Positions 4,116 to 64,000 of a stretch of 64,000 nucleotides of DNA are shown here, one piece after another (the first letter of the stretch is position 1; the number at the start of each line of letters is the position of its first letter). Origin of the DNA: Spizellomyces punctatus DAOM BR117 (Eukaryota); NCBI GenBank assembly GCA_000182565.2, contig KQ257461.1; one strand, given 5' to 3'. The notes beneath the pieces were generated by a model that saw nothing but the letters and a program-made list of their open reading frames with translations, searched no databases and had not been told where the DNA came from. Position numbers and translations under genes: made by a program.

Positions 4116-5591
4116 TAATGTGGCTCGTGACGAGTAGCGAGTTGGGCACCCGTTCCACCACCAAAGTTGTGTTCTAAATGCCAGGCAACAAATGTCGCTC
4201 AGTTATTGCTTATCGTGCAGGGTGCTTATCGCGGTGGACAACCTTGCCATGCCAACAACGTCCTCCAATCAACTCCTGAATAACCACGTGACATTTTATG
4301 ATAGTATAAAAGCGTCTGTCTGAAGCAACTTTTGATTTTCTTTATCGACCAACTCTTCAGGATCATATGTGGAGTCTGTCGTACCTCGCTTTGTTTTCTA
4401 ACAAAGTCGCACATATCACCAAGGATGATGAGATGGAGAGCCTCCATCCAACGAGAAGTGGGGAGTTTTGGAAGCGTACTTTCACGTCGGTTCCCTCCCG
4501 TTGAAGATTTCTCCTCTGGGATATTCCAATCCGGTAGGAAGGATGGTGGGCTCCGTCTGACTTGGTGTGGCATTGAGTGTGTGGCATTGCCGCAATCTTT
4601 AGGCTTTGGCGCCTTTGTTGTCTCTTTGGTCTGAACGTTGCGTGCAATGCCACTCTTTATTGAATCAGGGTCGTCAATGATTATACTCTTTTTATATTTG
4701 CTACTTCAGAGACTCACATATGTGGGTCCATGAGAATGATTATCCACCCATAGAATATGATACGAACCTGAATTCTTTTTCATGCGCACTTTTTACATGA
4801 CGTCCGTGGGCGGAATATCCGCTTCATGTCGCTTGCATCTTTCATCGCACCAAAAAAACGGCATGTCGTGCGTCGACTGCCCAAGGTATTTGCCCCCCCC
4901 CCACATAAAGCCAGCCACACGTCAGCCACACGCCACTAAAAACGCTGTGTGGCGCTAGTGTGGCTGTCATAAAATTCAATATATCCTTTTTTGCTGTTCG
5001 GATGGAGCCACCGATGGCATAGTCATGCTGTGCCACTGCCTTTGTGGACGCTCAAAGGCCGCTTTGGACCAAACTTGAAATTTTGGCAAAGGTTGGGAAC
5101 TTGCTTTTTGCAAACGAAATTCCTTTGAGCTCCCGGTCTGCGAAGGAGGGCCGGTAAGACCATGGCATGGAAGGGTGTTTGCTTGCATATGGTGTTTACT
5201 GATTAGAGCCGTTGATGATACAGAGGATCCGTTGTCATTGTTGCTTGGTTTGTGCAGGCATTTTGTTCAACGTCGGAGGGTTTTGTCTGCACATTGCTTG
5301 GGATCATTGAAAAGGTATGTGTATATGAGCTGCATGGCCGAGTGATGCGGGCTGCCATGCACAAGAGTCCTAACTCTAAATGTTCGTGCGTGGACTTTTG
5401 CAGTTTGGTATTGTTTGCGGTGGCTTGTGAGCGATATGGCTGATACGCAAGAGCTTCAACCAAAGGAAGAGCTCCAAAGGACGGTAAGGGCAATACACTT
5501 TTCAGATATATGAGAAAGTGGACAATGCGCTAAACAATTTTGACTAATTTGCTAGGAGTCACCCATTCCTACGGTCTCCAGCCAAAAGTAC

Positions 5592-20707: not shown

Positions 20708-20778
20708 GCATTGGTGGTTTAGTGGTATAATTACCGCCTGCCACGCGGTAGATCCGAGTTCGATTTTCGGCCAATGCA
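20708..20778 (+). tRNA. tRNA-Gly(GCC)
   Basis: GCATTGG...CTGCCAC...TTCGATT...CCAATGCA cloverleaf; downstream T-run. Confidence 0.9.
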
Positions 20779-24720: not shown

Positions 24721-24916
24721 NNNNNNNNNNNNNNNNNNNNNNNNNNNNNNNNNNNNNNNNNNNNNNNNNNNNNNNNNNNNNNNNNNNNNNNNNNNNNNNN
24801 NNNNNNNNNNNNNNNNNNNNNNNNNNNNNNNNNNNNNNNNNNNNNNNNNNNNNNNNNNNNNNNNNNNNNNNNNNNNNNNNNNNNNNNNNNNNNNNNNNNN
24901 NNNNNNNNNNNNNNNN
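24721..24916. other. Assembly gap (N run)
   Basis: Run of N bases. Confidence 1.
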
Positions 24917-26735: not shown

Positions 26736-26806
26736 GCATTGGTGGTTTAGTGGTATAATTACCGCCTGCCACGCGGTAGACCCGAGTTCGATTCTCGGCC
26801 AATGCA
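26736..26806 (+). tRNA. tRNA-Gly(GCC)
   Basis: Full cloverleaf, anticodon GCC. Confidence 0.9.
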
Positions 26807-26947
26807 CTGGCAGTCCCCATCGGGTACTTTTGCGAGAGAGCGCTGGCATTACTTTTTGCATGGTTGACCCAGAATTACAAACGTTCGCTCGCAAATGAAA
26901 CAAACCCCCGAGGAGTAACCGCAATTCTAAAATGGCTGCAGTACATA

Positions 26948-38747: not shown

Positions 38748-38835
38748 GTTGCTAGGCAACATTTATGAACATCGGAATTTCGGAATGGGATTTGATTGGC
38801 TGTCTGACACGTCATCATTCAACGCGGTTATAAAA
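38748..38835 (+). promoter_or_regulatory. Promoter module: RFX X-box (GTTGCTAGGCAAC), reverse CCAAT, GACACGT, TATA
   Basis: X-box 38748-38760, TGATTGG, TATAAAA 38829-38835; the same motifs are conserved at 42612-42723. Confidence 0.55.
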
Positions 38836-38928
38836 GGGAGCCCACCACGCGTTTTCCCTCACACTCTACTTCTCCCTTCCACTTCAACGACCAACACCGA
38901 CCGTCACCGGGACGGACTTCTTCTCTAG

Positions 38929-39603
38929 GTGGGTGGGGGACAACCATGGTTGCTGGATCGGGCTGCAATTTTGAAGTCCTGCTGGGGCTGCAGCATGTTA
39001 TTTCTTGGGCTTCCCACGGTATCTGATTCGGGCCTTGAGCTGCTGGGGCTGTGGTCGGTCGGAGGTGGCATGTTGTGGTATCTGTCGGGGATGGATGGTT
39101 GTAGGCAGCCTGCTGGGGCTGCAGCATATTATCTTCTTGGGCTTCCCACGGTATCTGATTCGGGCCTTGAGCTGCTGGGGCTGTGGTCGGTCAGGGGATA
39201 GCATGTTGTGGTATCTGTCGGGGTGTGATTCATGGGTTGGGATCAGCTTGCAATTTTGAAGTCCTGCTGGGGCTGCAGCATGTTACTTCTTTGGGCTTCC
39301 CACGGTATCTGATTCGGGCCTTGAGCTGCTGGGGCTGTGGTCGGTCGGAGGTAGCATGTTGTGGTATCTGTCGGGGATGGATGGTTGTAGGCAGCCTGCT
39401 GGGGCTGCAGCATGTTATCTTCTTGGGCTTCCCACGGTATCTGATTCGGGCCTTGAGCTGCTGGGGCTGTGGTCGGTCAGGGGATAGCATGTTGTGGTAT
39501 CTGTCGGGGTGATCTTGGCCCTGCCGGGTCGGCAAGTCTACTTGTGGCATCGGTGTATCATGGTCTTTATGGCGCAAGCTAACCCCTGCCCGCATTCCTT
39601 TAG
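38929..39603 (+). ncRNA. Intron carrying four tandem ~120-140 nt hairpin units (family 2 RNA)
   Basis: Donor AG|GTGGGT at 38929, branch GCTAAC 39578-39583, acceptor TTTAG at 39603. Repeated CTGCTGGGGCTG and GGTATCTG(T/ATT)CGGG motifs; CAGCATGTTA pairs with TAGCATGTTG through G-U pairs. Confidence 0.6.
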
Positions 39604-39859
39604 GTATCCTTTTCTCAAGGAGCGCGCGACTTCGACTATTCGGCCGACAGGATTTAGTTCAGCTTTTGGGGCGCGGACTTTGTACAATAGGCCTTGTAAA
39701 ATATGCATGACTATGAATATATTGATCCCTGTGTATGAGATATTCGCTTTGTATTTTATTCTCATTTCCCGACACTTTAGTCCTATGGGGCGTCCACCAG
39801 CAAGCCAACATACATCTGGGATGCGTGTAATCACCGGAGGTTAATGCAAAATGGAGCAT

Positions 39860-41919: not shown

Positions 41920-42810
41920 AGCGGACGGTGCTGTGAGTGCTTCGGACCATAGGACGTGTCATAGGAAGCTTGGATAATGCGCGATAAAGACCACCAGTAC
42001 TTGGCGCATTTACCCAGATCTAGATAATCGCCGGTCGATGAAGGATCTTTCTTGCTGATATTATCCGCGCTTTCTTTGGACGTGTTTGATATCATTGATA
42101 CGCGACGGGAGATGGCGGACAGTAAATCCTCACTTCGGTTCAACATTTCACACTCCATCAAGATAGTTTCCAATAAAATATTATATGAGTAACTGTGATT
42201 TAATGGTAGTAGTTATAAGATTTATTTTCTACTATTCGGAATTCACATAGTACAGTAATACCAATATAGTAGTTAGAGAATATCTAACTTATACTGTAAG
42301 TTTGACCGTACACATTTAGTCCGAGGGGTAGGCAATCCCAGTGATGATGCCCTACAAGTAGACAGGATTTCCCCCAGGTCACCCAGGTCAGAGAGCGGGA
42401 CACATCACCAATGATACCTGTTTCTGAATCCAGCGCTATTTTTGAGGGTACGACTTGGACAAGCCAGGTTGTCCCAACATGCTGACTAGTTCTTGGCTTG
42501 TGTTCAACTGATCATTGCATTCCATCAACGCCTTCCCGTCTTCTTTTCGTCATTCGTCAAACATGGATATCGGTCAATTATGGGAGATGTCGATCGAGTC
42601 GCGACTATGATGTTGCTAGGCAACCAATACGGAACATCGGAAATCGGAAGTCGGAAAGTATCGGCACGTAATGGAATCTGATTGGCTGACAGACACGTGA
42701 TGTTTTTTTTCACGACTATATAAGGAGACCCCCGCGCGTTCTCCCCATCAATGTACTTCTCCCCTCCACCACACCAACAACGACCGTCGCCGGGACGGAC
42801 TTCTTCTCAG

Positions 42811-43219
42811 GTGGGTGGGGGACAACCATGGTTGCTGGATCGGGCTGCAATTTTGAAGTCCTGCTGCGGCTGCAGCACGTTATCTCCATTGGCCTGCCAC
42901 GGCATCTCCGGGCTCTTGAGCTGTTGGGGCTGTTTGAGTTGTCGCGGCTGTGGGTGGTCTGGGGGTAGCGCGTTGCGGTATCTGTCGGGGATGGAGGGTT
43001 GCAGTCAACCTGCTGGGGCTGCTGCACGTTATTCTTTAGGGGCCTGCCACGGCATCTCCGGGCCTTTTGGCTGTCGCGGCTGTGGGTGGTCAGGGGGTAG
43101 CGCGTTGTGGTATCTTTCGAGGTGTGATCTTGGCCCTGCTGGGTCGGCAAGTCTACTTGTGGCATCGGTGTATCATGGTCTTATATGGCGCGAGCTAACC
43201 CCTACCCGCAGTCTTTTAG
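42811..43219 (+). ncRNA. Intron with two family 2 hairpin units (paralog of 38929-39603)
   Basis: Same X-box/TATA promoter, exon 1, donor GTGGGT, branch GCTAAC and acceptor; stem variant CAGCACGTTA/TAGCGCGTTG. Confidence 0.6.
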
Positions 43220-44703
43220 GTATCCATCATCAAGAGTGGTTCACCGCAACTGTTCAACGGAAGTTGTGCAAAAAAGATTGTGTTCAGTTTTGGGGAGCGT
43301 GCTGTGTAGAATCGACTTTGTAAAATATGATTTTTAATACATTGATTCCTGATCTCAAATCTCCAAGATTTCCTCTTTGAATTGTCCTATTGATGCGGTT
43401 ACTGCCTTGGATTTTGCTTTCTACTTTCCATTTCCATCACATCGTTTCCATCATGCGAGATGCTGCGCATTCGACAATGTGTCAATTTCTGTCAGTAAAT
43501 GTAAAGTATTGTTCGATGCATGCGTGCTGGAGGAGGAGAAGCCGGTCAGCCGACAATTGACTCGATAAAGGATGCCCACTCGTTTCGAACGCCACCACCT
43601 CCACCACAGTAGCCCGCACCAGCAGGATGACAAACTTCAGAATATAGAATTCTTCCCCAAATCAGCGTCCATGGGAAGAGCGTTAGTACGGATAGCAAGG
43701 AGTCCAACGACAAATGATTAGTGCGCATCCTACAGGACCGATTCTAAGGCCGCAAGGGAAGGTTAAATGGGCATACTGCCGGGTTCTCAAACGAGGGCAG
43801 GGACCGCCAATCAAGTCTATTCTCTGCCCAACTGACTTGCAATCAGCATCAAACGGGGGCTTTTGCTGAGCAGTAGTATCAGCGGGTTTGTTAGCAGACA
43901 AGGCTAAAAAACGATCTATGCCCGAATGCCAAGAAAAACTACTCTCATTCAGCAGCTTTGCGATTATGAAAGGTAGGCCGCTTCAGCGGACTCCAAACAC
44001 TACGGCGGCAACATCCCAACGACACCACCAACAAAAATCGCATCATATCGGCGACCATGCGGATATGAGCTGAGCAAACGCTGCATGTGCAAGGTGACGG
44101 ACGTGTGTCATGGTTGATCGAGAGCGACCGTCTGGGTCAATACTCAAAACCATGTGTGTGGAGAGAAACGCATGCAGAGTTCCAATAGACAAGGCATTGC
44201 TCCACATTGGCCGCTTAAAACGATGTTTCTCCAATCGTCGCTCGATCGAACATGGTCTAGATGCAGTATCCCCAAAACCGTTCGCCTGCTGCGACAATTC
44301 GCATCTCTGAACGATTCTTGCAATGGACTATACGCAGCGATCCACGACGTAGCTGGCTGCAAAGTGTGTTTCCGATCACACCAATATCAAAGAGCGTGGC
44401 AATAGTATTCATTCACGATGGGAGTCCTGTTGTGCAAACATCTGTAGATATGTTGATCCAGAAATTTGCTAGGCTTTCAGATTAACAATCCCCACGCCGA
44501 ATGAGCAAAAACTTATGTGACAATTGCGAGACATGCGGAAGGAGTATGATGTTATCGCCACTTAACCAGCGATGCTTATGTTACCGCCTTGGTACCGTTC
44601 TTTGTTATGCACAGCAGCAATTTGTGAATACCCGTTTCATTAGCAAAAGAAATATCGTAAAATGTAGAGTCCACCTCTCAAAAGTTATTCCTACAATTGC
44701 AGA

Positions 44704-44774
44704 TGCATTGGCCGAGAATCGAACTCGGGTCTACCGCGTGGCAGGCGGTAATTATACCACTAAACCACCAATGC
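44704..44774 (-). tRNA. tRNA-Gly(GCC)
   Basis: Reverse complement of the 26736-26806 copy. Confidence 0.9.
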
Positions 44775-44961: not shown

Positions 44962-45275
44962 ATGAGTGACACCGTTAACGAGACTTCTGCTTCCAAAGTG
45001 AGTATTCAACTCCAGAGTTCCCCTCGGTAGTTGAAGACCGCCTTTGGCGGTGGGAACGGTTCCCGCTAGCTTGTCTGTGCGGCCATCCTGGGCAGGGATC
45101 TGTGTTCGCACCACCTCGGCTGGGATCACCGTATGGGGTCATTCCAGTCCGAGCACACGTTTATATTAGCAGCTTGGCTTTCAACTTCAAACTTATGTCA
45201 ACTTGGCTTTTTAAACATTCTAGCGCCGTGAGTTTGAGAGGATCAAGCTCGAACTGTTTCAAAAAGGCTTTGCTG
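44962..45275 (+). pseudogene. Truncated N-terminal paralog of the nuclease gene with family 1 RNA in its intron (44998-45223)
   Basis: MSDTVNETSASK|GTGAGT...TTCTAG|RREFERIKLELF resembles nuclease exon 2 RRMDFDKIKSSLL; the intron contains GAAGACCGCC...CCAGTCCGAGCAC. Confidence 0.65.
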
Positions 45276-46172
45276 CGCTCAGAGATACGTCCTCTGGCTT
45301 CAAGGACCTGGCGGCAACCAATCGGTTGTATGCCGAATGGTTGACAAGAACAAGGTTCGCACCTTTAATAAATTGATTGTGATTTTGGTTCATATATATT
45401 GTTGGTTTGAATAGGCCACTTGAGGAGGAGAGTTCGTCGTCCTCGGACACTGAACATCAAATAACCCAATTACAAAAAGGCCTTGCTGCTCATAAAGAAA
45501 TAGCGCGGGCTGATTTGCTCTATGCACAAGCGGTAGTTGGCCTAAGGTTCGCACCTTTGATAAATTGATTGTTATTTTGGTTCATTATATTGTGTTTTGA
45601 ATAGGCCACTTGAGGAGGAGAGTCCGTCTTCCTCGGACACTGAACAGCAAGAAAACGTGTCCTCTGAGCACACCTGCGCCTCATGAAAATGGTATGTCCT
45701 CTTGTTCCTATTGTTCCTTTGCTAGATCTCGGCAATCCTAAGCGGCTAGTTTAGTTCACTCTATTATTGTGGTGTATTTTTTTCTCTAAAATACACATAT
45801 TAGCATGATCAACATGTTGAGATGCTTCTATACAATCTGACAAAAGGACACAATAATCTTGCTTCTCATTGCGCGTCTAGTACAGCATCTGAGTTTGCTG
45901 TTAGAGATGCGCGTAGAATAGCAAATATTGCCCGGTTCTTACAGAGCCCATATACGGAATTATTATCCAATGCATACAGAATACTGCAACCAGTTTACAA
46001 TGTTTCAAAGCATGTAAAATCAGTCGATAATATGTAGAAAAGTAGAGGAAAACAGCTGGTGGATGAACATGCGCGATGTCCAATTATCCTTTGGTCATGT
46101 GGGATCATGTGAGAAGATCAGAGGTCAATATAGAAGTCCACAAGTCTTGTAAACGCGTCCAGCATTTGCAAG

Positions 46173-46790
46173 ATGAGCGACATTCCCACCCACAAAGAGC
46201 ACAAGGAATCGCTCAAAAGAGCAGCAGAAGAAGCAGGGACCTTGCAACGCGATGAGGAGGGGCGCAAGAAAGCCCGCGCCAAGTCTGTGAGTATTCAAGA
46301 TTTCCCCTCGGTAGTTGACGACCGCCAATGGCGGTGGGAAAGATCCCCGCGGCTTGTCTGTGCGGCCGTCCTAGGCGGGCCCGTGTATTCGCACCACCTG
46401 TTCGACTGTGAGATCGCCGTATGGAGTCATCCAGTCCGAGCACTCGATTACAGTTGCTCAATTTTGCATTCAACATTTTAGCCCCGAGATGAGTTTGAGA
46501 AAATCAAGCTCAGCCTTTTACAACAAGGCCTTGCTGTTCATGACAAGGTTGCGTCGGCGCAGGACAAGTTGGCGGAGGCTAACTTGCTCTATGCACAAGC
46601 GGTAGCTGGCCTAATGTTCGCACCTTTGATAAATTGATTGTGATTTTGGTTCATTATATTGCGTTTTCAATAGGCCACTTGAGGAGGACAGTGCATCGTC
46701 CTCGGACAGTGAAGAGCAAGAAAACGTGTCCTCTGAGAAGCGAAAGGACTCACTGAGCAAATCTGAAGAAGCTCATCCTCTCAAAAACGG
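46173..46790 (+). pseudogene. Truncated N-terminal paralog with family 1 RNA intron (46287-46481)
   Basis: MSDIPT... versus nuclease MSNVPT...; donor GTGAGT; exon 2 DEFEKIKLSLL; no nuclease domain follows. Confidence 0.65.
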
Positions 46791-47289
46791 TATGGCCTCG
46801 TTTGTTTTGGCTAATACGCTATTAGCTGTATACATGGCACTTATTGTGCTTGACTAGATCTCGGACTGGTTAGTTTAGTCTGTTGGGGTTTCTGTAAAAC
46901 AATGATAAATCAAGTTAGCCCGCACATTTCGATTGGAAGCGACCGACAGCTTTGGTCCATTTCTTTCATACTAGAATAGCAAATATTGCGGGGTTCCTGC
47001 ATATACAGAAATTATTATCCAATGCATAGAAAATACTGCAACCAGTTTACTGTAGAGGAAAACCGCTGGTGGCCGTCCGAATACCACTCCTATACCGTTA
47101 ACTACCAATATGCAGATTGCAATGCATTCAATCAATTAAATGCGCACAGTCACTGGCCGCATCTCATAAGTCACGTTAACTAAATGATTGCAATCTTAAT
47201 TGCAGTGTGTCATTGGTTAAACGGTAGTGGAGCAAGGTATAAAAGTCGAGTTTGGATTGGAAATTGAAAACGCGTCCAACATTTGCAAG

Positions 47290-47620
47290 ATGAGCGACAT
47301 TCCCACCAGCGAAAAGTACAAGAAATTACCCAAAAGAGCAACAGAAGAAGGGGGTACCTTGCAACGCGATGAGGAGGGGCACAAGAAAGCCCGCACCAAG
47401 TTTGTGAGTATTCAGCTCAAGTGTGCATCTCGGTAGTTGACGACCGCCAATGGCGGTGGGAACTGTACCCCGCTAGCTGTGAGGCCGTCCTTGGCAGGGG
47501 CCCGTGTATTCGAACCACCTGTCCGGCTGGGATCACCGTTCATCGCATGGGGTCATCCAGTCCGAGCACTCGTAATAGTTGCAGCTTTGATACTCATATG
47601 GTCAATTCTCAGCACTGGAC
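47290..47620 (+). pseudogene. Truncated N-terminal paralog with family 1 RNA intron (47404-47612)
   Basis: TATAAAA ~47238, ACGCGT, MSDIPTSEKY..., donor GTGAGT, RNA element copy. Confidence 0.65.
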
Positions 47621-49023
47621 CAATAAAGTGATTCTCGATACTCTGAACGAACATAGGTTTGCTGCGCAGATATAATGTCTTTTATCTCGATACTTAAATC
47701 ATAATATTTGCATAGGCAAAAGGACAGCAAACCTCTGCTTAAAAAATGAACGGTATGGCCTCGTTTGTTTTGGCTAGTACGCTATTAGCTGTATACATGG
47801 TACCTATTGTTCCTTGACTAGATCTCGACATGCTTAGTTTAGTCTGTTTTTGTAGTTTCTTTGATTCCAAAATACACCTACAGTACTGGCATGATTCATA
47901 TGATCAGATGCAATCTCGATTGGGCACGACCGACAACTTTGATCCATTCCTCTCATGCTCGAATAGCAAATATTGCCGAGTTTGTTACAAAGTGCATATA
48001 CAGAAAGTATTAGAAAATACTGCAACACTTTGTACAACTCGAGTCGAGTATGTGATGGGACACCACACAGCGGTTAAGATTTGTAATTTCTTCCATTGTG
48101 GGTTCGTTGTGGTTGCATTCATTCAAATCGCTATTTCATAGCAATTGCTAAGGCGATATGGCCATGCCATCAAACCTGGTTTAACGCATGCTGCTGTGTT
48201 TCTGCTGTCTACCCGTTATCTGTCCCATCATATATTCGATAGGAGTTGTAGTGGTGGGCTTCTTGCACAGCGCTTGAAGTGGAGGAACGAGATGAAGAGC
48301 GAGCTGCGAGCATTGAAGACGTGGAACACCATATGTCACTTTCAAAATGGACACCCAGGAGGCTATTTTTTTGGTCTTCTTCGAAAGGTAAACGTGAAGG
48401 TGGGTTGACATACGGTGCACCCAGATATTTTCCGCACCTCTAGCAAATAACCCCGTGAATGCATCCATATGAATAATGACGATAAAACTAGGCGAGATTG
48501 TTATTTAAGAAGTGCAAATGTTCATCTGTTAACGCACTAGGCTTGGCCCACCCCCACCCACCCCACCACCCACCCCGCCAATGAGGAGTCTTTTGAGGTA
48601 CGCGACCGGGTCGTGAAATGAACGTGAATTGAAAGCAGGAGGCGATGCAGTCCAGGTTCCAGGCATGGGAGGTACAGTCGGTTGACCAGGGTAGCCCCCC
48701 AGACATTGATGGAGGATTTCCAGAGAGCGGTGACTTCGTCCCAGAGTACATGGTGCATAAGAACTCTCTGGGGTACTTTGGCGGATACGAGGACGTCGAT
48801 GCATACCTTCAGTCCCGTTCCCGCTGGACGGGTAAGGGAACGCGTAAGGTAATGGATACCATGTTCTGTTCTTAGGCGCGGTTCAGAATAAATGAAATGG
48901 TGCGGCGCGTTTGCTTTGCAATGACTCGGTACGGTTTGCGCAGGGCTGTTGCCGTTTAAACCACAAAGGAATGGTCAGAATTCTGCAGGGAAAGACAAGG
49001 TACAACACAATACGAAAACTCAC

Positions 49024-51708
49024 CATCATATCCCGAACAAAAAAGGGAGAGCGCACTAGACATGTTGTAAAACGGAAAAAATGGTCTTAGTATACAGAGT
49101 TTAAAGCGTGAAAATCAACGCTGCATCTATCATCGAGTGCTCGGACTGGATGACCCCATACGGTGATCCCAGCCGGACAGGTGGTACGAATACACAAACC
49201 CCTGCCCAGGACGGCCTCACAGACAAGCTAGCGGGGACCGTTCCCACCGCCGTTAAGCGGTCTTCAAAGCACATACTCGCATAGCGGACTGGATGACCCC
49301 ATACGGTGATCCCAGCCGGACAGGTGGTACGAATACACAAACCCCTGCCCAGGACGGCCTCACAGACAAGCTAGCGGGGACCGTTCCCACCGCCAAAAGG
49401 CGGTCTTCAACTACCGAGGAGGACACTTGACGTGAATACTCACCGCAGGACAAGGCTTGCTCAGGCCGACAGAACAAGTCACGGTTCTCGAGTGGTCCCT
49501 ACGAGGATATGTTGTAAAAATGGAAAATACTGGTATCAGTATACAGAATTTAAAGCGTGAAAATCAACGCTGGAACTATTAATGAGTGCTCGGACTGGAT
49601 GACCACCATACGGCGATCTCAGCCGGACAGGTGATGCGTATACACAGACCCCTGCCTAGGACGGCCGCACAGACAAGCCGCGGGAACCGCTCCCACCGCC
49701 AAAAGGCGGTCTTCAACTACCGAGGAGGAGACTCGACTTGATACTCACCGCAGGACAAGTCTTGCTCAGGCCGACAGAACAAGTCACGTTTCGCGGGGTT
49801 CTGTGACAATATGTTGTAAATGCAGAAACATGATATTAGTATGAAGTCGAAAACTTGCAATTCAAACTGTACTATAATAGAGGTGCTTGGACTGGATGAC
49901 CACCATGCGATGAACAGTGATCCCAGCCGGACAGGTGGTACGTATCCACAGACCACAGACCCCTACCTAGGACGGCCTCACAGACAAACCGCGGGAACCG
50001 TTCCCACCGCCGTTAAGCGGTCTTCAAAGCACATACTCGAATAGCGGACTGGATGACCACCATGCGATGAACGGTGATCCCAGCCGGACAGGTGGTACGT
50101 ATCCACAGACCACAGACCCCTGCCTGGGACGGCCTCACAGACAAGCCGCGGGGACCGTTCCCACCGCCAAAAGGCGGTCTTCAACTACCGAGGGCAACTC
50201 TTGAGTTGAGTACTCACCGCAGGACAAGTCTTGCTTGCTTTGGCCGACGGAACAAGTCACGCTTCGCGATGTCCTGTGACGATATGTTGTAAAATGGAAA
50301 CAAAATTGGTATTAGTACAGAGTTAAAGCGTGGAAATCAAATCTGCAACTACAATCGAGTGCTCGGACTGGATGACCCCATGCGATGAACGGTGATCCCA
50401 GCCGGACAGGTGGTACATATCCACAGACCACAAACCCCTGCCTAGGACGGCCTCACAGACAAGCCGCGGGGACCGTTCCCACCGCCGTTAAGCGGTCTTC
50501 AAAGCACATACTCGAATAGCGGACTGGATGACCCCATGCGATGAACGGTGATCCCAGCCGGACAGGTGGTACGTATCCACAGACCACAAACCCCTGCCTA
50601 GGACGGCCTCACAGACAAGCCGCGGGGACCGTTCCCACCGCCCAAAGGCGGTCTTCAACTACCGAGGAGGACACTTGAGTTTGAAATACTCACCGCAGGA
50701 CAAGTCTTGCTTAGGCCGATGAACAAGTAACTGTTCGTGCGATCCCTGTGCGGATATGTTGTAAAACGCAAACAAAATTGGTATTAGCACAGAGTTTAAA
50801 GCGTGAAGATTAAAGCTGCAACTATAACGAGTGCTCGGACTGGATGACCCCCATACGGGAACCTCAGCCGGACAGGTGGTTCGAATACACGGGCCCCTGC
50901 CAGGGACGGCCTCACAGACAAGCTAGCGGGTAACCGTTCCCCCGCCGTTAAGCGGTCTTCAAAGCACATACTCGAATAGCGGACTGGATGACCCCCCATA
51001 CGGGAACCTCAGCCGGACAGGTGGTTCGAATACACGGGCCCCTGCCAAGGACGGCCTCACAGACAAGCTAGCGGGGTACCGTTCCCACCGCCCAAAGGCG
51101 GTCTTCAACTACCGAGGAGGACACTTGAGTTGAAACTCACCGCAAGACAAGTTTTCCTAACAACGACGCCACGATTGGAGTGGTCCCTGTGAGGATATGT
51201 TGTAAAATGGAAACAAAATTGGTATTAGCACAGAGTTTAAAGTGTGAACATCAACGCTGCATCTATCATCGAGTGCTCGGACTGGATGACCCCATACGGT
51301 GATCCCAGCCGGACAGGTGGTACGAATACACAAACCCCTGCCCAGGACGGCCGCACAGACAAGCTAGCGGGGACCGTTCCCACCGCCGTTAAGCGGTCTT
51401 CAAAGCACATACTCGCATAGCGGACTGGATGACCCCATACGGTGATCCCAGCCGGACAGGTGGTACGAATACACAAACCCCTGCCCAGGACGGCCGCACA
51501 GACAAGCTAGCGGGGACCGTTCCCACCGCCCAAGGGCGGTCTTCAACTACCGAGGAGGACACTTGAGTTTGAAATACTCACCGCAGGACAAGTCTTGATG
51601 CAGATGTGCGTACGCCGGCTGCGCATCGCTTGTGGGGGTGGACTGCTCATCTTGCAAGAGTTCGACGCGTTATGAAAGGGGGGGTGCGGATCATTTCGGG
51701 CTTTTATA
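49024..51708 (-). ncRNA. Spliced non-coding host transcript: six repeated introns carrying 11 copies of the family 1 structured RNA
   Basis: TATAAAA 51708-51702. Introns 51581-51187, 51140-50746, 50693-50274, 50217-49801, 49748-49499 and 49443-49056, each GTGAGT...YAG. Exons of 46/52/56/52/55/32 nt; the spliced frame from ATG 51650 stops after ~32 codons. Confidence 0.75.
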
Positions 51709-52709
51709 CCCATTTGGGCGTGATTCCACGTGATCGGGCATGCGGATTGGACGCGCGTCTACTTTACAAAATAACCTTGAAAACACATGACCGTGATGCG
51801 TGTCAGTCCCACTTAAGGTATACTTACAGTACCGAGTGGGTGAGAACAAGCAAGTAATGCAATAATGCATCTATATATACACGGAATGCGTGAAGACTGA
51901 ATACTGTAGTATTATATGTAAGACTTTTTTTCGCACAATACAGAACATAGGGAAGTGCTTCCATTGGATACAAGTAGGAGTATACTTGCCATTAGATACA
52001 AGTAACAATAAGCTGCATCTCCTGTCAAAGTGCGTTGGGCGCACGCATTCTGGTGGGGCTTAGAAGACTAAGCGGGCTCTAAAAGCCGGCGCTGCATGGC
52101 AACTCAAGACAATGTGTCCATATTGTAAGTATAACCCCAGATCTCAATTAGACATGGCCTTGATTAGAATAACAAATATTGCCGTGTATGATTATCAAGA
52201 TGGATGATGGATACAAACCGCTTGCCTGGTAGCATGTCGTAAGCATTGGGTAAGGACATTCTAGCCAATCACCGTCCAGCCTGGCCCAACGTGGTCCAAC
52301 AAAATTTACGCGTCCACAAATTGGCCCAGTGTAACGTATCTTGTCTCCCAAAATGCACAGGTTCCAATGCATTTCACTCTGATTACTGCCGATTGTAGTG
52401 TGATTCCACATGACCATACGCGCGTACAAAAATGTTATTGACCCATTTAACGCATATCGTTTATTCACCTGGACAAGCGACAGGAATGATGCATACTCAA
52501 CAACGTCCATATGCCGTGTATTTACACATGTAATTCACATCTAATCACTTATCCGCTGCATGCATGATAGCTACGCTATGATAGCTGGATACATTCATCC
52601 GATATGTGGTTCGAAATACTTACATGTACACCTTTCAGCTGCGCAAAAGATAGGGTAAGATTGATAATCACACATGCGTTCTTTTTGTATAAAAGGATGA
52701 AGGTCCCCA

Positions 52710-52930
52710 TTCCCCCTCGCTCTCGTTCTTGTTGTCTCTCTTCTTCTCTCTTCTCTCACTTACGCTCTCTTACGCTCTCTCCCTCTCTGTGGATCTCTCT
52801 CTCTCTCTCGACACACACACACACACAGTCGTAACTCGTTTTTGTTTTCTTTTGCGTTTGTTTTTGTCTCTCTCTCTCTATCTCTCTCTACTCTCTACTC
52901 TCACGCTTCTCTCTTCTCTCTTCTCTACAG
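52710..52930 (+). repeat. CT/CA microsatellite-rich 5' UTR and UTR intron of the nuclease gene
   Basis: TATAAAA ~52688, (CT)n and (CA)n tracts, acceptor CTACAG at 52930 immediately before the ATG. Confidence 0.6.
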
Positions 52931-52931
52931 A

Positions 52932-55131
52932 ATGTCGAACGTGCCTACGGTAGAAGAATACATCAACGCCAACCCAGCTGGCACCTGGGATGAATACCGA
53001 GCTCTGCTCAAGCAAGCACAAGAAGATCTGTCCACAATGCCAAAGAAGATACGCCCCCGTATCGAAGGCCGAATCAAGACACATCTGGCTGTGAGTATTC
53101 AAGTCAAGAGTTCCCTGGGTAGTTGAAGACCGCCTTTGGGCGGTGGGAACGGTTCCCGCGGCTTGTCTGTGAGGCCGTCCTAGGCAGGGGTTTGTGGTCT
53201 GTGGATACGTACCACCTGTCCGGCTGGGATCACCGTTCATCGCATGGGGTCATCCAGTCCGAGCACTCGTTTATAGTTGTAGCTTTGATTTTCACGCTTT
53301 AAACTCATATGGTGATGTTCAATGTAGCGTCGGATGGATTTCGATAAGATCAAGAGCAGCCTCCTGGATCGAGCCCTGGGTGCGCATGTGGACATAGCGC
53401 ACACCCAATTGGACGTAGCACACACCAATAGGGTGATTGTCGATACAGTGACAGGCAAAAGGTGTGAAGCGCATTTTCTGCATTGATTGACATATCAGTG
53501 CATTGAATCGTCTTTGTGTAGTAGGCTCATTCGTGAGGACAGCCCCTCGTCCTCCGACTATGGTTCCGACTACGCTCCTTCCTGCTCGACCACGCAGGAG
53601 ACGGACGTGGATAGTGACGATCGTGTCGCTTTGTTCAACCATGAGCAGCATGTGATGGCACAGCTGCTCAAATTGGGAAGAACCCTCCTGCCGTCCGGAG
53701 TTCTATTGGAAGCGGTGATGGCTTCCAATGCCATTCGTGTCGAGAATGAGAGGTAGTGTATCGTGCCTCTATTGTAACACATGAATTCCGCTCTTGTACT
53801 CATGGCGTCACAGTCCCGCCCATTCCTTTATCTTCGATCTTGAAGAGATGAGCGCTCTGCGCCGGAGGGACCCAGCCGCATTTGCAAAAGAAGACCTGGT
53901 GTTCGTGAGGGGCCTATGGAACGAGCGCCCCAGCTCAAAATACACCAAGTTTTTCTACTGTGACCCTGAACAGAGATACGAGGTGTTCACGACACCGGGT
54001 CTTCGCAAGTGTGCCGACTTTTTGTCACGGTTAGAGAAGGTATAGACGTTTGTGTGTCAAGCCTCGAGCCCTCTCTAATGTGGATCGTCCTCGCAGATGA
54101 GTAGCCAAGGTAACACCTTAGAAGAGGTGTTGGATTTCATGTTTCGGGTGGGCGGAGAGAATGTATCACCCTACCGTGAACTTTACTCGGTCATCCTTCA
54201 GTTGTAAGTCGTTGCCCTTGGGCTCTTACGATTCCTAGATATAGGCTTGACTATTATTTGATCTTAGCTGTCTCCACTGGACCAAGGAAGTTTGTCCCAT
54301 GACGCGCGAAGCGGATTATATGCGCCTATGGAACAGACTGTTCTACGACCTTGCACCCCGAGGCCTCTTCACCAGTACACCCGAAGAGAGCGTGCATGCA
54401 AGCAAGACGCGTAAGCTTATGCATGCAGGGGAAGATAGGAAATGGGTGCGAGGTCGCAAGGCCGACATGCTATGGGTGACGTTGGATGGGACGGCCCTAG
54501 TATGGATGGAGGCCAAGAAAGGGTCGTGGACAGAGGACCCTGGAGAAGCTGAAGGGGCGACGCTGAAGGCGACGAAGGGCTCCAAAGACGCGATGGATGC
54601 GATCCAGCGTAAGAAAGGAACAGCCCTAGAAACATGGGCGTGTGTTAATTTGGGGGAAGAGTGGACCCTTCGCTGTTCGTATCGCCTGCCCAGTGGCGTC
54701 GTCGTCACCGGCAATGTTGGGGAATGGTGTCTGTCGATGGGATTCTCGAGCTTCGCTCGTCTTCTGGAAATGTGCCGTATAGTGCTCATTTGGGGGGTAA
54801 GGAAACAGTTTCCCCGATTCTATTGTATGTTCTGGGTATTGACATTCTTATGCTCTGTAGCTCGCGCTGGACGATAGTAGGCGCGAGATCATGCAGAAGG
54901 CCAGCTTGAGCCGATACCCCCGAGACGAAGAGGTGAACATGGCAGACACCTTCCCAACGCCGGAGAAGCCTAAACCGAAGGCACGGACTCAGAAGCCTGA
55001 AGATACTACGGAAGATACGGAAGATACACGGGAAGAGGCCTCACCCACCAGGAAAAAGTATGTCTTCTTGTTTTGCATAGCCGTACAACTGGTTCTCATC
55101 GTTCCTGTTCCTTGGTAGGTCTCGTCGTTGA
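52932..55131 (+). CDS. PD-(D/E)XK restriction-endonuclease-fold protein (Crinkler-REase-like, early-diverging fungal family), ~9 coding exons
   Basis: Open spliced frame: 52932-53090, 53328-~53379, micro-exon 53449-53461, 53525-53752, 53814-~54039, ~54097-54202, 54268-~54796, 54861-~55057, 55119-55131. Motifs E..SVHASKTRK, GRKADML, WMEAKK, KGSKD. Confidence 0.75.
53105..53270 (+). ncRNA. Family 1 structured RNA in the first coding intron (53091-53327) of the nuclease gene
   Basis: Near-identical to the array copies in introns 3-4. Hairpins ACCGCC/GGCGGT, GGGAA/TTCCC, GCGGCTT/AGGCCGT, GGCAGG/CCTGTC, GGCTGG/CCAGTC. Confidence 0.7.
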
Positions 55132-56084
55132 AGGTAGCGCCTGTGCGCTGTGGCTCGGAGGAGGTTTGAAAATGGTACCAGGGTAAGCTTTATATTGTCC
55201 GGTCAACTTTTCTATCGTCGTGGCTCTCGTACGTCCGGCACAGTTCTGACCATCTTTTTTTGCTTTTCACAGCAACTGCTTCCATCACCTTCCATCAAGA
55301 TTACGATTATTGGCAGGGTAAGTTTTCGAAACCTCGTCTGATTTTTACGGTTTTCGAGTTGTCTAAGATAACACGGAAACCACCAAGTGTTATCTATGGT
55401 ATCTCTTTGATGTCTTTCAACCGAAACTGACTTCTATTTTCTTTTCTCTACTTTTTAATGCATCGATGTTCGGAGCGGACTCGGGACTTCAAGGACGACA
55501 CCTCAAGACTCTAGAACCCGAGACTTTTTCCTGTGGTTGGGTGGGGCTCAGTGTATTCTTCGAATAAAGAGGCTCATAAATTATCCTTCTGTCCACTTTA
55601 CAATTGTTAAATTCAAGTCAAGCTACCTTTTTTTTTTTCGTAAATGTTTGTGAATGAATGCAGTATGGCGTCGCACGACATGATTGTACTGAACTGTGTA
55701 TCAAGCTCTTCGTTTTCGCTCTTGCTTTGCAATGCCTCGGGATGTCAGATTGCACCAAAATACACGATGAGCCGCTTTTCTCTAGCAGACCTCTTGGTCA
55801 ACTGACACATTGCAAGAAAAGTCCATGTCGCGCTGAATGAAGCCACAATACTGAGCAAGAAACACGTCGGGCTTTGTCTGAATGCATATGGCGGAGAATC
55901 AAGACGATAGTTATGTCACGAAAGTGTAATGGGGGGTACATCGAATACTTGTAGTGCGGTGGTATTATGCACCTGATTCGATTATCTTGTGCGGTTCCGT
56001 ACAGACTTGTATAGACTTGCTAGTGCGGACCATACGGATATGATAAATATTCAGCAATAATATTACCTTATCCGAGAGGAGGAA

Positions 56085-56390: not shown

Positions 56391-56699
56391 TGTTTATAGT
56401 GGTTCGGTACTTCATGATTGACATCATGCATAGGGTTAGGCATGTACTGTACAACTCCTATCGAGTATGTGATGGGACACCACACAGCGGTTAAGATTTA
56501 TAATTTCTTCCATTGTGGGTTCGTTGTGGATGCATTCATTCAATGCACTATTTCATAGCAATTGCTACGGCGGTATGGCCATGACATCAAACCTGGTTTA
56601 ACGCATGCGCTGCTGTGTTTCTGCTGTCTACCCGTTATCTGTCCCATCATATATTCGATACTAGTTGTATGTCACCAAGCCACGAATCCTCTGTTAAAA

Positions 56700-57510
56700 G
56701 ATCATCCATCGCATCTTTGGACCTTCGTCGCCTTCAGCGTCGCCCCTTCAGCTTCTCCAGGGTCTCCAGGGTCCTCTGTCCACGACCCTTTCTTGGCCTC
56801 CATCCACACTAGGACCGTTTCATGCACGTAGATTCAGGAAAAGTAACGGCTTGGTCTTATCGCCACTGCTGAAGTTACAGCCTTGTTTCCATTCATTATG
56901 CACAGCAGCAATCTGAGAATTCCCCCTAATTGTTTGACGCGTTGGGTCCACAACGCAAAAAAGTACGACGATGCCTGGTGCAATGCATTGTCCGAGAATC
57001 GAACTCGGGTTAACCGCGTGGCAGGCGGTAATTATACCACTAAACCACCAATGCTCGTGTATTCATTAATGAATCTCTATCATATGTCAATTTAACTGAA
57101 AATGGCCGCATTCACCGTGCGCGGCATCTGAAGTAACACACTTGCAGGACTTGTATTTACGCTCGAGAATACTGATCACCCTAACCTCTACACAAATCCA
57201 TTCCCGCCAGTGGCCCTAGCGGCAAGTCGGAGGCACCTGTTGCAAAAGTGGGAACAAAATAGATATACAATGCGCAAAACAAGATGAGAAGGGTTTTCCC
57301 CTTATCCCGAGGGTGATGTCGTTACAGGTAGATGACGCTCATCTATTCTGAGATCGCAACGAGATTGTTTCACTACATATTTGCGAATTAGTTACTGGGA
57401 GCGGGGCGATATGGGCGACGCTGAAGGCGACGAAGGGCTCCAATGGATGAGATCCAGCGTCAGAAGGGAACCGCCCTATAGACATCCTAAGTGTCAATCT
57501 TGGGCAAGAA
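56700..57510. pseudogene. Short nuclease-domain fragments in opposite orientations (~56700-56815 minus, ~57410-57510 plus)
   Basis: Matches to 54500-54660, e.g. GGCGACGCTGAAGGCGACGAAGG and TGGATGGAGGCCAAGAAAGGGTCGTGGACAGAGGACCC. Confidence 0.7.
56984..57054 (-). tRNA. tRNA-Gly(GCC), variant with an acceptor-stem mismatch (possibly pseudo)
   Basis: Cloverleaf as in the other copies but with a G7:A66 mismatch; its flank is homologous to the flank of the 44.7 kb copy. Confidence 0.7.
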
Positions 57511-57679
57511 TGGCTAACCGATGCGCAGACATCCCCGTTAGATCCCGCTGAGATAGCAAGGATTATCAGAGGTGTGGAAACCAAACACCAAACATTGCGA
57601 AGACGACGATCACAACAAGAGAGAAATATGTTCACTAAACTAGTCGGATTCTCCTCCTTTTCTACATGCCGGGAACGTC

Positions 57680-60900: not shown

Positions 60901-62712
60901 CAACACGGTGTTCAACACCACCATCTTGCGACTTGTAACGCCAGTACCAAGGTTGATGGTTGCAGGTGTTATGGGATTCCCCAACTGGTAGTAATTTAAT
61001 AATAAATCTAGGATCCGTCAGACGTTGAACAATTACTAGCGATATCATCAATAATACATGTTTCAATTTCGAGAAGATTTAAAGCCTTTTTTACACGTCA
61101 ATTGGCCTTTAACTAACTGTGAAAGTCCACATTCACCCTCTCGGTCTTACCATCGCTGATCGCGACGACCCCACATTCACCAACCGTTCGCCGTCTGCAA
61201 AGCATGCATGCCCCTATTACCTATCCCAACAGGAGTTTGTCCAGTCGTTCCTGCAATGCCCGCCTTGTACCGGGATCTCGCTCCTCCACCAGTTGCTGAC
61301 GTATATAGACGATCTGGTTCGCTCTCAAATGTTCTACGACCCGAGATGGTGCGGTTGTAGCAGTGGAATGGTTGACACGCCCTCGGTTTTCGGGATTCAC
61401 CAGAGTTCCTCTATTTGAAAAATCCCCAGTCGCCTAGGGTTTGGGGACTCTCCAATACAGCTGGGGTGCTCTCCAGTGGCTCGAGGGGCCCACCTGGTAC
61501 TCGCGAGTCATACCTCAGGGGTCAACCCGCCTGCACGTCAGGCGTGGCACCCCAAATTGTTAGCAGCAACTGGAATACCATGCAAAATACCTCCGCTTAC
61601 CCTGTGCTACTGATACGAACAGTGAGCTCGACTCTCAGCACGATCCTCTACGGTGCTCAGAGACCTCATTCATCATTCGGGTATAAATAGGCTAATACGA
61701 GAGGCTTCATGTGCGACACCTCGGCATCTCGCCTCGGCCGTTTCAAGGGCCACTGGATCACAAGAACGTGGTCCCTAACCCCAACGCTTTCCGGGCCACA
61801 TGCGTTAGATATGTACGCACTGAGCCGGCTTGAGCCTGCGACCCAGGTAGGTATACTTGCGAGACCTACAATTGTGAGCTGATTCCCCCTTGCTGGCTAT
61901 GGTTTTTGTTGGGCTGGCAGGAGCGTAGGGTTAGCCGGAGGGCGTGGTGTAGGTATCGCCTTGAGTACGCCGGAGTACGTGGCGTGGGTATGCTGAATGG
62001 TATTCTCCAGGAGCGGATCACAATGGAGTTTGCAACTCGAAGTGAAGAAACCATGGTTCAAGCATAGCACCGGGTTTGAACTGGTGTATTATGGTTGCAA
62101 TTGCTTAACTATTCCAGTACTGTACAGTAGGCCATACATCAACTCTGGTTAACGCACGCACTGCAATGTTCCTGCTATGCTTTGGACGCTCATCTCTTCA
62201 TTACGAGTTGTATAGCGTAATAGGCGTGCAACTCCTATCCATCTATTCACCAGACAACCTGACCACTGGGTTCGTTCAATCACACTTCCTTAGGATCTAT
62301 TGTATTTGCCAGATCGTTTGTCGTATGTGTTGCATGCATGCGTTCACACTAATTATAGATACATGGCCAGTATTTAGTCTGCTCACCCACTTGCTCAGAA
62401 GCGTCCATAAATCACATACCTCAATTAGACAACGCCAACACCTTGATCCATTCCTTTCAGACTAGAATAGCAAATATCGCTGGGTATGTTACAGAGTACA
62501 TACACAGAAGATAATATCCGATGCATAGAAAGTACTCCAAAGTTTTGCTGTAGTTTCAAAGCATGTAAAATCAGTCGATAATATGTAGAAAAGTAGAAGA
62601 AAACAGCTGGTGTGTCATGTCCGAATGTCATTTGGTCATGTGAGATCACGCCATGGTGCTTGTATAAAAGTCCGAAAGTCCCCGTTGGGAAAACGCGTCC
62701 AACTTCCGCAAG

Positions 62713-64000
62713 ATGAGAATTCCCACCAGCGAAGAGTGCAAGGACGCCGCGTGCATGCGTGAGCAGCACGTTAAGGCACAGCTACGTAAGCTCGGAAAAA
62801 CACCGCTCCCGTTGGGAGCTGTATTGGAAGAAGCCATGGCGGCAGTTGCGCTTCGCACGGAGGCTGAGAGGTAATACGCCGCTCATGTTCTAATCGTAAT
62901 TCGCTCCTTACTCATTGGGGTTGGTTATGTCCATCAGCCCCGTTCATTCATTCATCTTTGATCTGGAAGAGATGGAAGAGTTGTGCGCGCGGGACCCAGC
63001 CGCGCTTCCAAGTGAAGACTTGGATTATGTCAGGACTCTTTGGAACAACCGCCCAAGTAAAAAGTACTTCCGCCGCGATCCTGCAGACAAGTACGAAAGG
63101 TTCACAACTCGCGGTCTGCGCATGTGCGCAGATTTCATGTCACGTTTAGAGACGGTAAATACATTCATGTGGCATGGCGCGAGCGTCTCTCTAATGTGGA
63201 TCGCCCTTGCAGATGGTAAGCCAAGGTAGCACTTTCGCACAATTGCTAGGGGCCGTCGCTGGTGAGGCGGCTGAAGATGAAGAGCCATTCCTCGAACTGT
63301 ACGGGGTCATTTTCAACTTGTAAGTTGCCTCTGGCGCACTCTCGCCCGCCTAGATATAGGCCTGACTATTTCACTAGCTGTATGGAATGGAGAAGCCAAC
63401 GTGTTTGGAAGGATGGCGCTGACCATATGCGCCAATGGGATAAGCTTTTCGATGCCCTGGCTCCCAAAAATATTCGTTTCGCCGAGCCATGTTCGTCACC
63501 CCCATCCATGCCACCATTATCTTCGATCATGAAGAGATGGCAAACCCCTGATGGGGACACCCTCGTGTGCATGGTGGCCAAGAAAACCACTTGGGTGGAT
63601 GATCCTGATGAGGCTGAGCAAGCCATCTTAAGGGCGACGAAGGCGTCCAAAGACGCGATGGACCAGATTCTCCGTCGGTTACGACGGACCGTAGAAACGT
63701 GGGTCTCCGTAACCTTGGGGAGACATTGGACCCTTCGCTGTTCATATCGCCTGGCAAGTGGGGTCATTGTCACCGGCAATGTTGGGACGTGGCTTCTCCC
63801 AAATTGCTTTTCCAGTTTTCCTCGGCTCCTTGGAATCTGCCGTATAGTTCTTCTTTGGGGGGTAAGGAAACACCCAATTGTATTGTATTGTCTGGGTTTT
63901 GACGTCATCACGCCTTGTAGCTGGCGCTGGAGGATGTTGCGCGGGAGATCAGGTGTGATTGGATCGGCAGCCCACCCCGCGGACCTTTGAGAATAGCTGA
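62713..64000 (+). CDS. Catalytically degenerate paralog of the PD-(D/E)XK nuclease, lacking the RNA-bearing intron (runs off the window)
   Basis: TATA ~62663, ACGCGT, MRIPTSEE fused in frame to EQHVKAQLRKLG (the exon 4 equivalent). Same downstream intron positions. GRKAD segment absent and EAK changed to VAK. Confidence 0.7.

Follow-up and report, generated by a model that had tools for sequence, protein, structure and literature searches.

What does a short element do that recurs in the first intron of a chytrid gene family, and how did one gene of the same neighbourhood come to be built around it? The question is raised by a 64,000-nucleotide (nt) stretch of the genome of Spizellomyces punctatus DAOM BR117 (contig KQ257461.1, assembly GCA_000182565.2), to which we refer as the window. 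Here the plus-strand gene SPPG_06427, which encodes a putative nuclease, stands head-to-head with a minus-strand transcription unit, the array host gene, whose introns carry an element of ~150 nt over and over. A first-pass annotation, made from the letters of the sequence, described this arrangement as a nuclease gene beside a spliced array of structured RNAs, a dedicated RNA-producing locus amplified from the nuclease's own intron. The reading that we favour, giving it about an even chance, is that the element works as an RNA module borne by introns, and that it is hosted by a local gene family in decay and by an amplified non-coding host gene derived from that family.

Fifteen copies at one intron position

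The window holds 15 copies of the element, with ~60% G+C, all within 44.9-55.6 kb. Three routes recovered the same 15: extraction by regular expression, blastn queried with the nuclease intron, and a covariance model run against the full 64 kb. The covariance model, built from the copies, matched them at 124.6-166.7 bits; the sole other match, at 7.6 bits (E 0.64), is not credible. The array accounts for eleven of them, all on the minus strand from 49130 to 51558. The remaining four are on the plus strand, at 45019-45163, 46303-46450, 47425-47576 and 53111-53273. The last of these sits in intron 1 of SPPG_06427, where the first-pass annotation had seen it together with the eleven of the array; the other three, which it overlooked and which lie beyond the interval it described, occupy intron 1 of truncated paralogs, here called g45, g46 and g47.

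All 15 copies are in sense orientation to the host transcript and at the homologous intron position, and within the 64 kb the covariance-model search placed none of them (0/15) outside the gene-family locus. The element starts ~30 nt after the 5' splice site and ends 43-92 nt ahead of the 3' splice site. Introns that bear it measure 195-420 nt, against 57-90 nt for the other seven introns of the nuclease-like gene, and we therefore regard the element as an insert in an otherwise ordinary intron. A metagenome scan with a 25-base gapped pattern of invariant columns returned two matches, both in bacterial coding sequence; we rejected them as homologs of the element, since their similarity ends at the pattern, and take them for chance matches.

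Sequence comparison shows the element to be far better conserved than the exons that flank it. Among the four protein-gene hosts the mean identity is 0.79 for the element and 0.79 for the 5' lead of ~30 nt (the two together ranging over 75-88%), compared with 0.60 for the intron tails (54-66%) and 0.46-0.72 for the flanking exon segments (36 nt at the end of exon 1, 60 nt at the start of exon 2). The exception is exon 1 of the recent pair g46 and g47, at 0.92; random 50-mers run through the same aligner give 0.48. Within the array, identity is 0.86-0.87 in the element, 0.86 in the 5' lead, 0.79 in the intron tails and 0.73 in the mini-exons. The earlier statement that introns are better conserved than exons thus holds. 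Coding capacity decays while the element persists, from 80 amino acids (aa) in g46 to 63 aa in g47 and 32 aa in the array, yet all of these genes are transcribed.

A host gene of mini-exons

The array host gene reads along the minus strand. Its TATAAAAG box (51701-51708) lies ~980 bp from that of the nuclease-like gene (52688-52695, plus strand), in agreement with the divergent TATA promoters ~1 kb apart that had been reported. Exon 1 (51582-51685, 5' end approximate) contains the family's 5' leader motif ACGCGTC...GCAAGATGAGC at 51645-51670, with one mismatch to the pattern and with the transcript's first ATG, from which an open reading frame (ORF) of 32 aa ends in exon 2. Six introns follow. 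Intron 1 (51187-51581, 395 nt) holds elements at 51409-51558 and 51266-51415, intron 2 (50746-51140, 395 nt) at 50968-51120 and 50824-50974, intron 3 (50274-50693, 420 nt) at 50508-50670 and 50352-50514, intron 4 (49801-50217, 417 nt) at 50033-50196 and 49876-50039, and intron 6 (49056-49443, 388 nt) at 49273-49422 and 49130-49279, whereas intron 5 (49499-49748, 250 nt) has a single element at 49579-49728. Five of the six introns are thus occupied by dimers, whose copies are joined by a 17-nt linker, and one by a monomer, as the first-pass count of one or two copies per GT-AG intron had it. Downstream of the array come a 78-nt GT-AG intron that bears no element (48946-49023) and a terminal exon (48400-48945, 3' end approximate) with no convincing ORF.

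The mini-exons between the array introns measure 46-56 nt. Each of the six predicted introns begins with GTGAGT and has a CTRAY-like branch site and a terminal AG, and these splice signals are kept in all six despite 5-19% divergence between units. We rejected the idea that the array transcript is coding, its ORF from the first ATG being just 32 aa; the first-pass annotation had described the exons as tiny and out of frame. ORFs of 73-104 aa in the terminal exon were likewise rejected as unsupported and altered by indels seen in reads. A spliced-leader (trans-splicing) reading of the mini-exon and GTGAGT units was also rejected, given that each unit has a branch site and a 3' splice site and that three genes splice the homologous intron in cis.

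The motif TATAAAAG ... ACGCGTC ... GCAAGATGAG recurs at 46153, 47270, 51645 (minus strand) and 62693, with zero occurrences expected by chance (pattern search and alignment). Because three family members of the window have the leader motif ACGCGTC...GCAAGATGAG at their 5' ends (46153, 47270 and 62693), we conclude, as the first-pass annotation had suggested, that the promoter and first exon of the array derive from the 5' ends of the gene family. An ACGCGT core stands between TATA box and ATG in every family-type promoter, and also near 52306-52330. This core coincides in sequence with the fungal MluI cell-cycle box and could confer G1/S-regulated expression on family-type promoters.

The terminal exon has features of its own. 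Single-base indels distinguish the reads and a complementary DNA (cDNA) contig from the window at 48555, 48557, 48695, 48753 and 48804, and represent either homopolymer assembly errors or strain differences; those at 48555-48804 alter every ORF of the exon. A tract at 48539-48580 is G-rich on the RNA. Over 48529-48580, ~1900 RNA sequencing (RNA-seq) reads stop at 48529-48539, with short loose ends that resemble snap-back copies of nearby sequence. This pile-up beside the G-rich tract is possibly a reverse-transcription stop and not a transcript end.

The array is transcribed from the minus strand

Expression was read from a raw RNA run that carries the same species label, a 3'-biased 60-nt library (X19), and from a contig run labelled 'DNA?' (X1). 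We interpret the latter as cDNA because some of its contigs are fully spliced, a poly(A) run is present and depth is zero in the intergenic bins 51659-52380. A metatranscriptome run (X23) gave no reads on the window.

In X19 the array is covered on the minus strand only, at a depth of 0.8-7.6, with 0 on the plus strand; depth in intergenic bins is 0-0.03. Minus-strand depth begins in bin 51298-51658, matching the predicted start of the array, and is 0.03 in bin 51659-52019. The array is transcribed, and from the minus strand only. A joint between 48945 and 49024, GT..AG on the minus strand (CT..AC on the plus), is present in one cDNA contig of depth 353 and in two RNA-seq reads, and the array transcript therefore runs past 49024 into the terminal exon. 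Minus-strand depth there reaches 377 in bin 48410-48770; the same library piles up at the 3' end of the nuclease-like gene (256).

The other hosts are transcribed as well. RNA-seq reads cover g45, g46 and g47 on the plus strand, g45 at a depth of 9.7-15.6. The nuclease mRNA is fully spliced in X1 (depth 129), and X1 and X19 alike show g46 and g47 with their element-bearing introns spliced out. The element-bearing intron is, in short, removed efficiently from the nuclease, g46 and g47 transcripts.

A predicted fold of four hairpins

The RNAalifold consensus of the copies has four hairpins and 41 pairs. Under this fold 98.0% of 606 cells are paired, versus 34-44% when the partners are slid. Several pairs are fixed as G-U, which on the opposite strand would give A-C mismatches, and the sense fold is more stable than the antisense fold in 13 of the 15 copies. 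Both large indels lie in hairpin loops, and most substitutions also map to loops of the prediction. By minimum-free-energy folds and by sequence, the 17-nt linker of a dimer can pair with the 5' flank of copy one as well as with the 3' flank of copy two; each copy of a dimer can therefore close its own terminal stem, the two using different sequences.

The element matches no known RNA class that we looked for. Rfam 15 gave no gathering-score match over the locus and 0 matches at E<=5 in 47000-53500; on 53085-53335 there was a single chance match, on the antisense strand (E 3.2). This is the outcome that the first-pass reading needs. As to the small nucleolar RNA (snoRNA) classes, a C box (UGAUGA or RUGANGA) is present in 0/15 copies, CUGA, the D box, occurs in 3/15 and there only at internal positions 106-108, and ACA, which an H/ACA RNA would have 3 nt from its 3' end, is found in 1/15; the predicted fold, four hairpins in a multiloop and not hairpin-hinge-hairpin, does not suit that class either. 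The element is not tRNA-like by ARAGORN, which reports just four tRNA-Gly genes elsewhere in the window. No gapless terminal inverted repeat of at least 10 nt was found at its ends, which form, by eye, an imperfect, gapped inverted repeat; nor was a target-site duplication visible by eye at the flanks of the monomer copies. A literature search on Spizellomyces snoRNAs, introners or intronic non-coding RNA returned general papers only and nothing on the element (supplements not covered).

The neighbouring nuclease-like gene

Transcription of SPPG_06427 would start at ~52731, by arithmetic from a 2183-nt cDNA contig. The coding region (52932-55131, plus strand, stop codon at 55129-55131) comprises exons 52932-53090, 53328-53461, 53522-53752, 53814-54039, 54097-54203, 54268-54796, 54861-55057 and 55119-55131. 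X1 shows eight introns, of which the first (53091-53327, 237 nt) carries the element; the others are 53462-53521, 53753-53813, 54040-54096, 54204-54267, 54797-54860, 55058-55118 and 55183-55272. The 3' untranslated region (UTR) extends to ~55583, with a poly(A) site near there (X1). The 90-nt intron at 55183-55272 is spliced from this 3' UTR, ~52 nt past the stop codon, and could expose the nuclease-like mRNA to nonsense-mediated decay.

The spliced product of 531 aa is 100% identical to the database protein SPPG_06427 of S. punctatus DAOM BR117. Pfam has no family for the seven SPPG_06427 exon translations or for any of 38 relatives, a PDB profile search returned nothing, and Foldseek, with the full model and with the domain, found nothing at E<=0.001; the better-probability rows were proteins of restriction-endonuclease (REase) fold. 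AlphaFold models are confident over residues ~130-480. Exon 6 (54268-54796) encodes an REase-like core, and the model of this domain alone has a predicted local distance difference test score of 87.1. Its VIA Z scores are 10.4 for BpuSI (139 residues, root-mean-square deviation 3.7), 9.8 for DrdV, 8.9 for TT1808 and 8.0 for an HsdR fragment, and most of the 50 rows listed are of the restriction-endonuclease fold; two human mitoribosome chains reach 8.8-9.8 over a longer stretch. The signature residues D352 and E367-A-K369 follow one another in the sequence as expected. Of the 38 relatives at least 90% conserve G348 and D352, and E and K are the majority residues yet below 90%.

These models and residues support the assignment of SPPG_06427 as a putative nuclease of PD-(D/E)XK-type, restriction-endonuclease-like fold, as the first-pass annotation had read it; its gene model is confirmed by cDNA. 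The modelled exon-6 domain has its fold in common with the N-terminal domains of BpuSI and DrdV. Unlike known PD-(D/E)XK nucleases, SPPG_06427 has no Pfam or PDB sequence match and bears an N-terminal helical and acidic region. An Atlas structure search finds resemblance to large uncharacterised Mucoromycota families (template-modelling (TM) score 0.80), with weak leads only to PDDEXK_12 and Crinkler-associated clusters. All ten relatives checked by source name are hypothetical chytrid proteins (Gaertneriomyces, Geranomyces, Nowakowskiella, Physocladia, Phlyctochytrium), and a Powellomyces protein is also among the database matches; by name, then, the family is chytrid-restricted. It is multi-copy in several chytrids. 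No publication naming SPPG_06427 or its relative SPPG_06430 was found (supplements not covered).

Truncated paralogs and other family members

The three truncated paralogs lie on the plus strand: g45 at 44962-45700 (intron 1 44998-45223), g46 at 46173-47079 (intron 1 46287-46481) and g47 at 47290-47821 (intron 1 47404-47612). All have the family promoter or N-terminus, with the intron two residues ahead of a conserved (D/E)F(D/E)KIK motif. The splice sites behind the 80-aa ORF of g46 and the 63-aa ORF of g47 are supported by reads. Over 46602-46673 in g46 the reads use a GTAGCT donor, which cuts the ORF short at 80 aa; the frame would stay open with a GTTCGC donor 17 nt further downstream. Use of the GTAGCT donor is consistent with a host gene whose protein has become dispensable.

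SPPG_06430 (373 aa, 62663-63864, plus strand), another member of the family, has the canonical TATAAAAG box and leader motif. It has no N-terminal region, no element-bearing intron and no D352 stretch, and V replaces E367, so that judged by these residues it is probably catalytically dead. Two pieces that resemble the nuclease core, at 56723-56818 (minus strand, 87.5% identical over 32 aa) and 57415-57513 (plus strand, containing stop codons), are pseudogene fragments of the nuclease-like family.

Other features of the window

A direct repeat of 220 bp, 93% identical, brackets the array and the nuclease-like gene at 48031-48250 and 56448-56669, 8.4 kb apart, and may mark a segmental duplication or a mobile unit. 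The four tRNA-Gly(GCC) genes reported by ARAGORN are at 20708-20778, 26736-26807, 44704-44774 and 56984-57054; the locus has one of these genes on either side, both on the minus strand, and one of the two lies immediately upstream of g45. Local repeats unrelated to the element occupy 38781-39609 and 42667-43225, and include a near-tandem pair at 38945-39225 and 39231-39511 (96% identical). A U3 snoRNA gene lies at 4345-4565 (plus strand, Rfam 57 bits), with a TATAAAAG box at 4305-4312, and 196 N at 24721-24916 mark an assembly gap.

Discussion

We propose that the ~150-nt element would be a non-coding RNA module with a function, carried within spliceosomal introns. It would originally have occupied intron 1 in a chytrid-specific gene family, in which the full-length proteins have a restriction-endonuclease-like domain. 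Locally, three paralogs would have shed most of their coding capacity and kept promoter, first exon, element intron and expression, so that they now serve mainly as hosts. A fourth derivative would have been remodelled into a pure host by sixfold amplification of a short exon and its intron, and doubling of the element inside five of the six array introns would have brought eleven copies under one family-type promoter. The RNA may be released from the introns or act within the unspliced array transcript, as a module folded into four hairpins and closed by a terminal stem, and selection may have acted on the dosage of element RNA. Most likely such an RNA would form a stable ribonucleoprotein (RNP) outside the snoRNA classes. 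The proposal allows for a functional tie to the nuclease-like proteins and does not require one: shared descent of the host genes accounts for the linkage with the nuclease-like gene, which taken alone is no sign of a functional pair. In line with the first annotation, the locus looks like a transcribed, non-coding gene dedicated to hosting an intronic element and descended from the 5' end of the family. Its link to the nuclease may be no more than shared ancestry of the hosts.

The observations that weigh against this proposal concern the fold, the relations among the copies and the splicing of the array. Compensatory double changes are found in 0 of the 41 pairs, the shuffle control being uninformative, and folding-energy z-scores against dinucleotide shuffles are just -3.3 to +0.6. 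Variation is concentrated in unpaired columns of the consensus structure (43/57 variable, versus 27/82 of the paired ones), a test that is partly circular; with single-sequence structures the contrast is weak, 35-45% of paired versus 51-66% of unpaired columns being variable (p 0.008-0.18). Overall the fold is suggestive and lends modest support, short of proof, to a structured RNA: pairing and the loop-enriched variation bear out the first-pass claim, the missing compensatory changes do not. Furthermore, the indels common to the copies form a mosaic pattern. By blastn, identity of the nuclease intron copy is 94-95% with array units 3 and 4 (with both copies of intron 3), versus ~81-85% with the other units. 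The mosaic and this closeness point to gene conversion, which is able to keep similarity going with no function behind it.

Gene conversion is at the heart of the strongest alternative, that the element is repetitive or selfish DNA with no RNA function. It would be a GC-rich insert, resembling an introner or a miniature inverted-repeat transposable element (MITE) or being simply a duplicated intron, passed on by local gene duplication and a tandem duplication and homogenised by conversion among 15 nearby copies. On this view the array and the small genes would be pseudogenes in decay that are still transcribed. The mosaic, the absent compensatory changes and weak z-scores, the family fragments and the direct repeat in the surroundings and the gapped inverted repeat at the element ends all agree with it. 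Yet the 15 copies share one homologous context and one orientation, with none dispersed within 64 kb, the gapless terminal repeats and visible target-site duplications are missing, and four independent hosts keep promoter, splice signals and expression while their coding sequence decays. Conversion alone, moreover, leaves unexplained why similarity ends at the element and its lead. We consider this alternative unlikely, if far from negligible. Introners are dispersed in unrelated genes, often with terminal repeats and target-site duplications. The chytrid element resembles introner- or MITE-derived introns in that a repeated sequence family forms most of several introns, but all of its copies found in the 64 kb searched are at one homologous intron position of one gene family.

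As to splicing, X1 contigs are unspliced across two array mini-exons (49401-49683 and 50680-50917) at a depth of 14-70. The most abundant contig, of depth 353, retains the last element-bearing intron and is unspliced from 49024 to ~49237, the extent being taken from depth bins; array exon-exon joints number 0 among the 15 joints listed of 21. Minus-strand transcription of the array and the downstream 48945/49024 joint are thus shown; removal of its six element-bearing introns, as first annotated, is a prediction. The unspliced RNA, beside a fully spliced nuclease mRNA, is what one would expect of a protein-binding module that works in unspliced RNA, regulating splicing or expression of the family's genes in cis from intron 1. 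In trans, the polyadenylated, largely unspliced array transcript would bind the same factor as a multivalent sponge or decoy, and that factor may be the protein of the family itself. The intron-retaining small nucleolar long non-coding RNAs (sno-lncRNAs) and SPA RNAs of the Prader-Willi region offer an analogy. The constant distance of ~30 nt from the 5' splice site, a lead conserved as well as the element and the 11 repeats within one RNA also suit such a module. However, the element intron is efficiently removed in the nuclease, g46 and g47 transcripts, and the array maintains all its splice signals, which a purely unspliced scaffold would not need. We regard this explanation as quite unlikely.

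It is also conceivable, and we think improbable, that the element is an RNA subunit or regulator of the chytrid REase-fold family, a structured RNA delivered from introns that would inhibit the family's nuclease-like proteins, scaffold them or lend them specificity, with its dosage set by the 11-copy host and with the paralogs of 63-80 aa, truncated to the N-terminal part, as further modulators.

In the bacterial type III toxin-antitoxin system ToxIN a tandem-repeat structured RNA lies beside a nuclease gene, the ToxI repeats being 36 nt long and in the same operon. The chytrid locus is similar in that a tandem repeated RNA element adjoins a nuclease-like gene, but the toxin there is an endoribonuclease of the ToxN/AbiQ type, which processes the repeat RNA and has another fold, whereas SPPG_06427 is modelled as REase-like, and the chytrid copies lie in spliceosomal introns of a divergent gene and not in the same operon. 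An RNA-protein conflict or effector system, with the tandem RNA as a ToxIN-like antitoxin or as guide or scaffold of an RNP nuclease, would accommodate the intact motif residues of the neighbouring protein, the multi-copy state of the family and its likeness to the Mucoromycota families, which is typical of conflict-type genes (the PDDEXK_12 and Crinkler leads being weak), yet it is highly improbable, given that SPPG_06430 keeps the family promoter and lacks the element along with the D and the E residue, so that RNA and active nuclease are not strictly coupled, that the RNA has no variable spacer-like segment, that the element is also found in hosts encoding just 63-80 aa, and that common descent of the host genes accounts for the linkage.

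Intron-encoded and polycistronic snoRNA hosts of fungi and plants are weakly coding or non-coding and yield several RNAs per precursor. The array is like them in placing candidate small RNAs in the introns of a non-coding host; those clusters mix different snoRNAs of two canonical classes, whereas the array would repeat a single RNA of no recognised family eleven times. Closer still is SNHG14, with its SNORD116 and SNORD115 tandem arrays, where small RNAs lie in the introns of a tandem-unit host, as described in PMC11608373. The chytrid array shares with this mammalian gene a non-coding host in which a short exon and an intron carrying the same small RNA are repeated in tandem (here six introns, 11 copies, mini-exons of 46-56 nt and an ORF of 32 aa), and a candidate RNA better conserved than the exons. 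It differs in that the candidate RNA has neither C/D boxes nor an Rfam match, is present twice in five of the six introns, and also occurs in intron 1 of neighbouring protein-coding paralogs, the evident source of the host. Given this resemblance the architecture of the array is not unprecedented, and the first-pass statement that no described eukaryotic system has this arrangement was too strong.

What the locus means depends on whether the element acts as an RNA, and S. punctatus has been reported to be genetically tractable. If the element is merely a homogenised repeat, the locus would be an ordinary outcome of local duplication. If it is functional, an early-diverging fungus would possess a new family of RNA that is neither C/D nor H/ACA, and the strategy of placing RNAs in tandem introns of a non-coding host, known from the mammalian imprinted snoRNA clusters, would have arisen independently. 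The locus would then offer a clear case of protein-coding genes becoming RNA hosts: within 9 kb it has one gene at full length, three paralogs that are truncated and one pure host.

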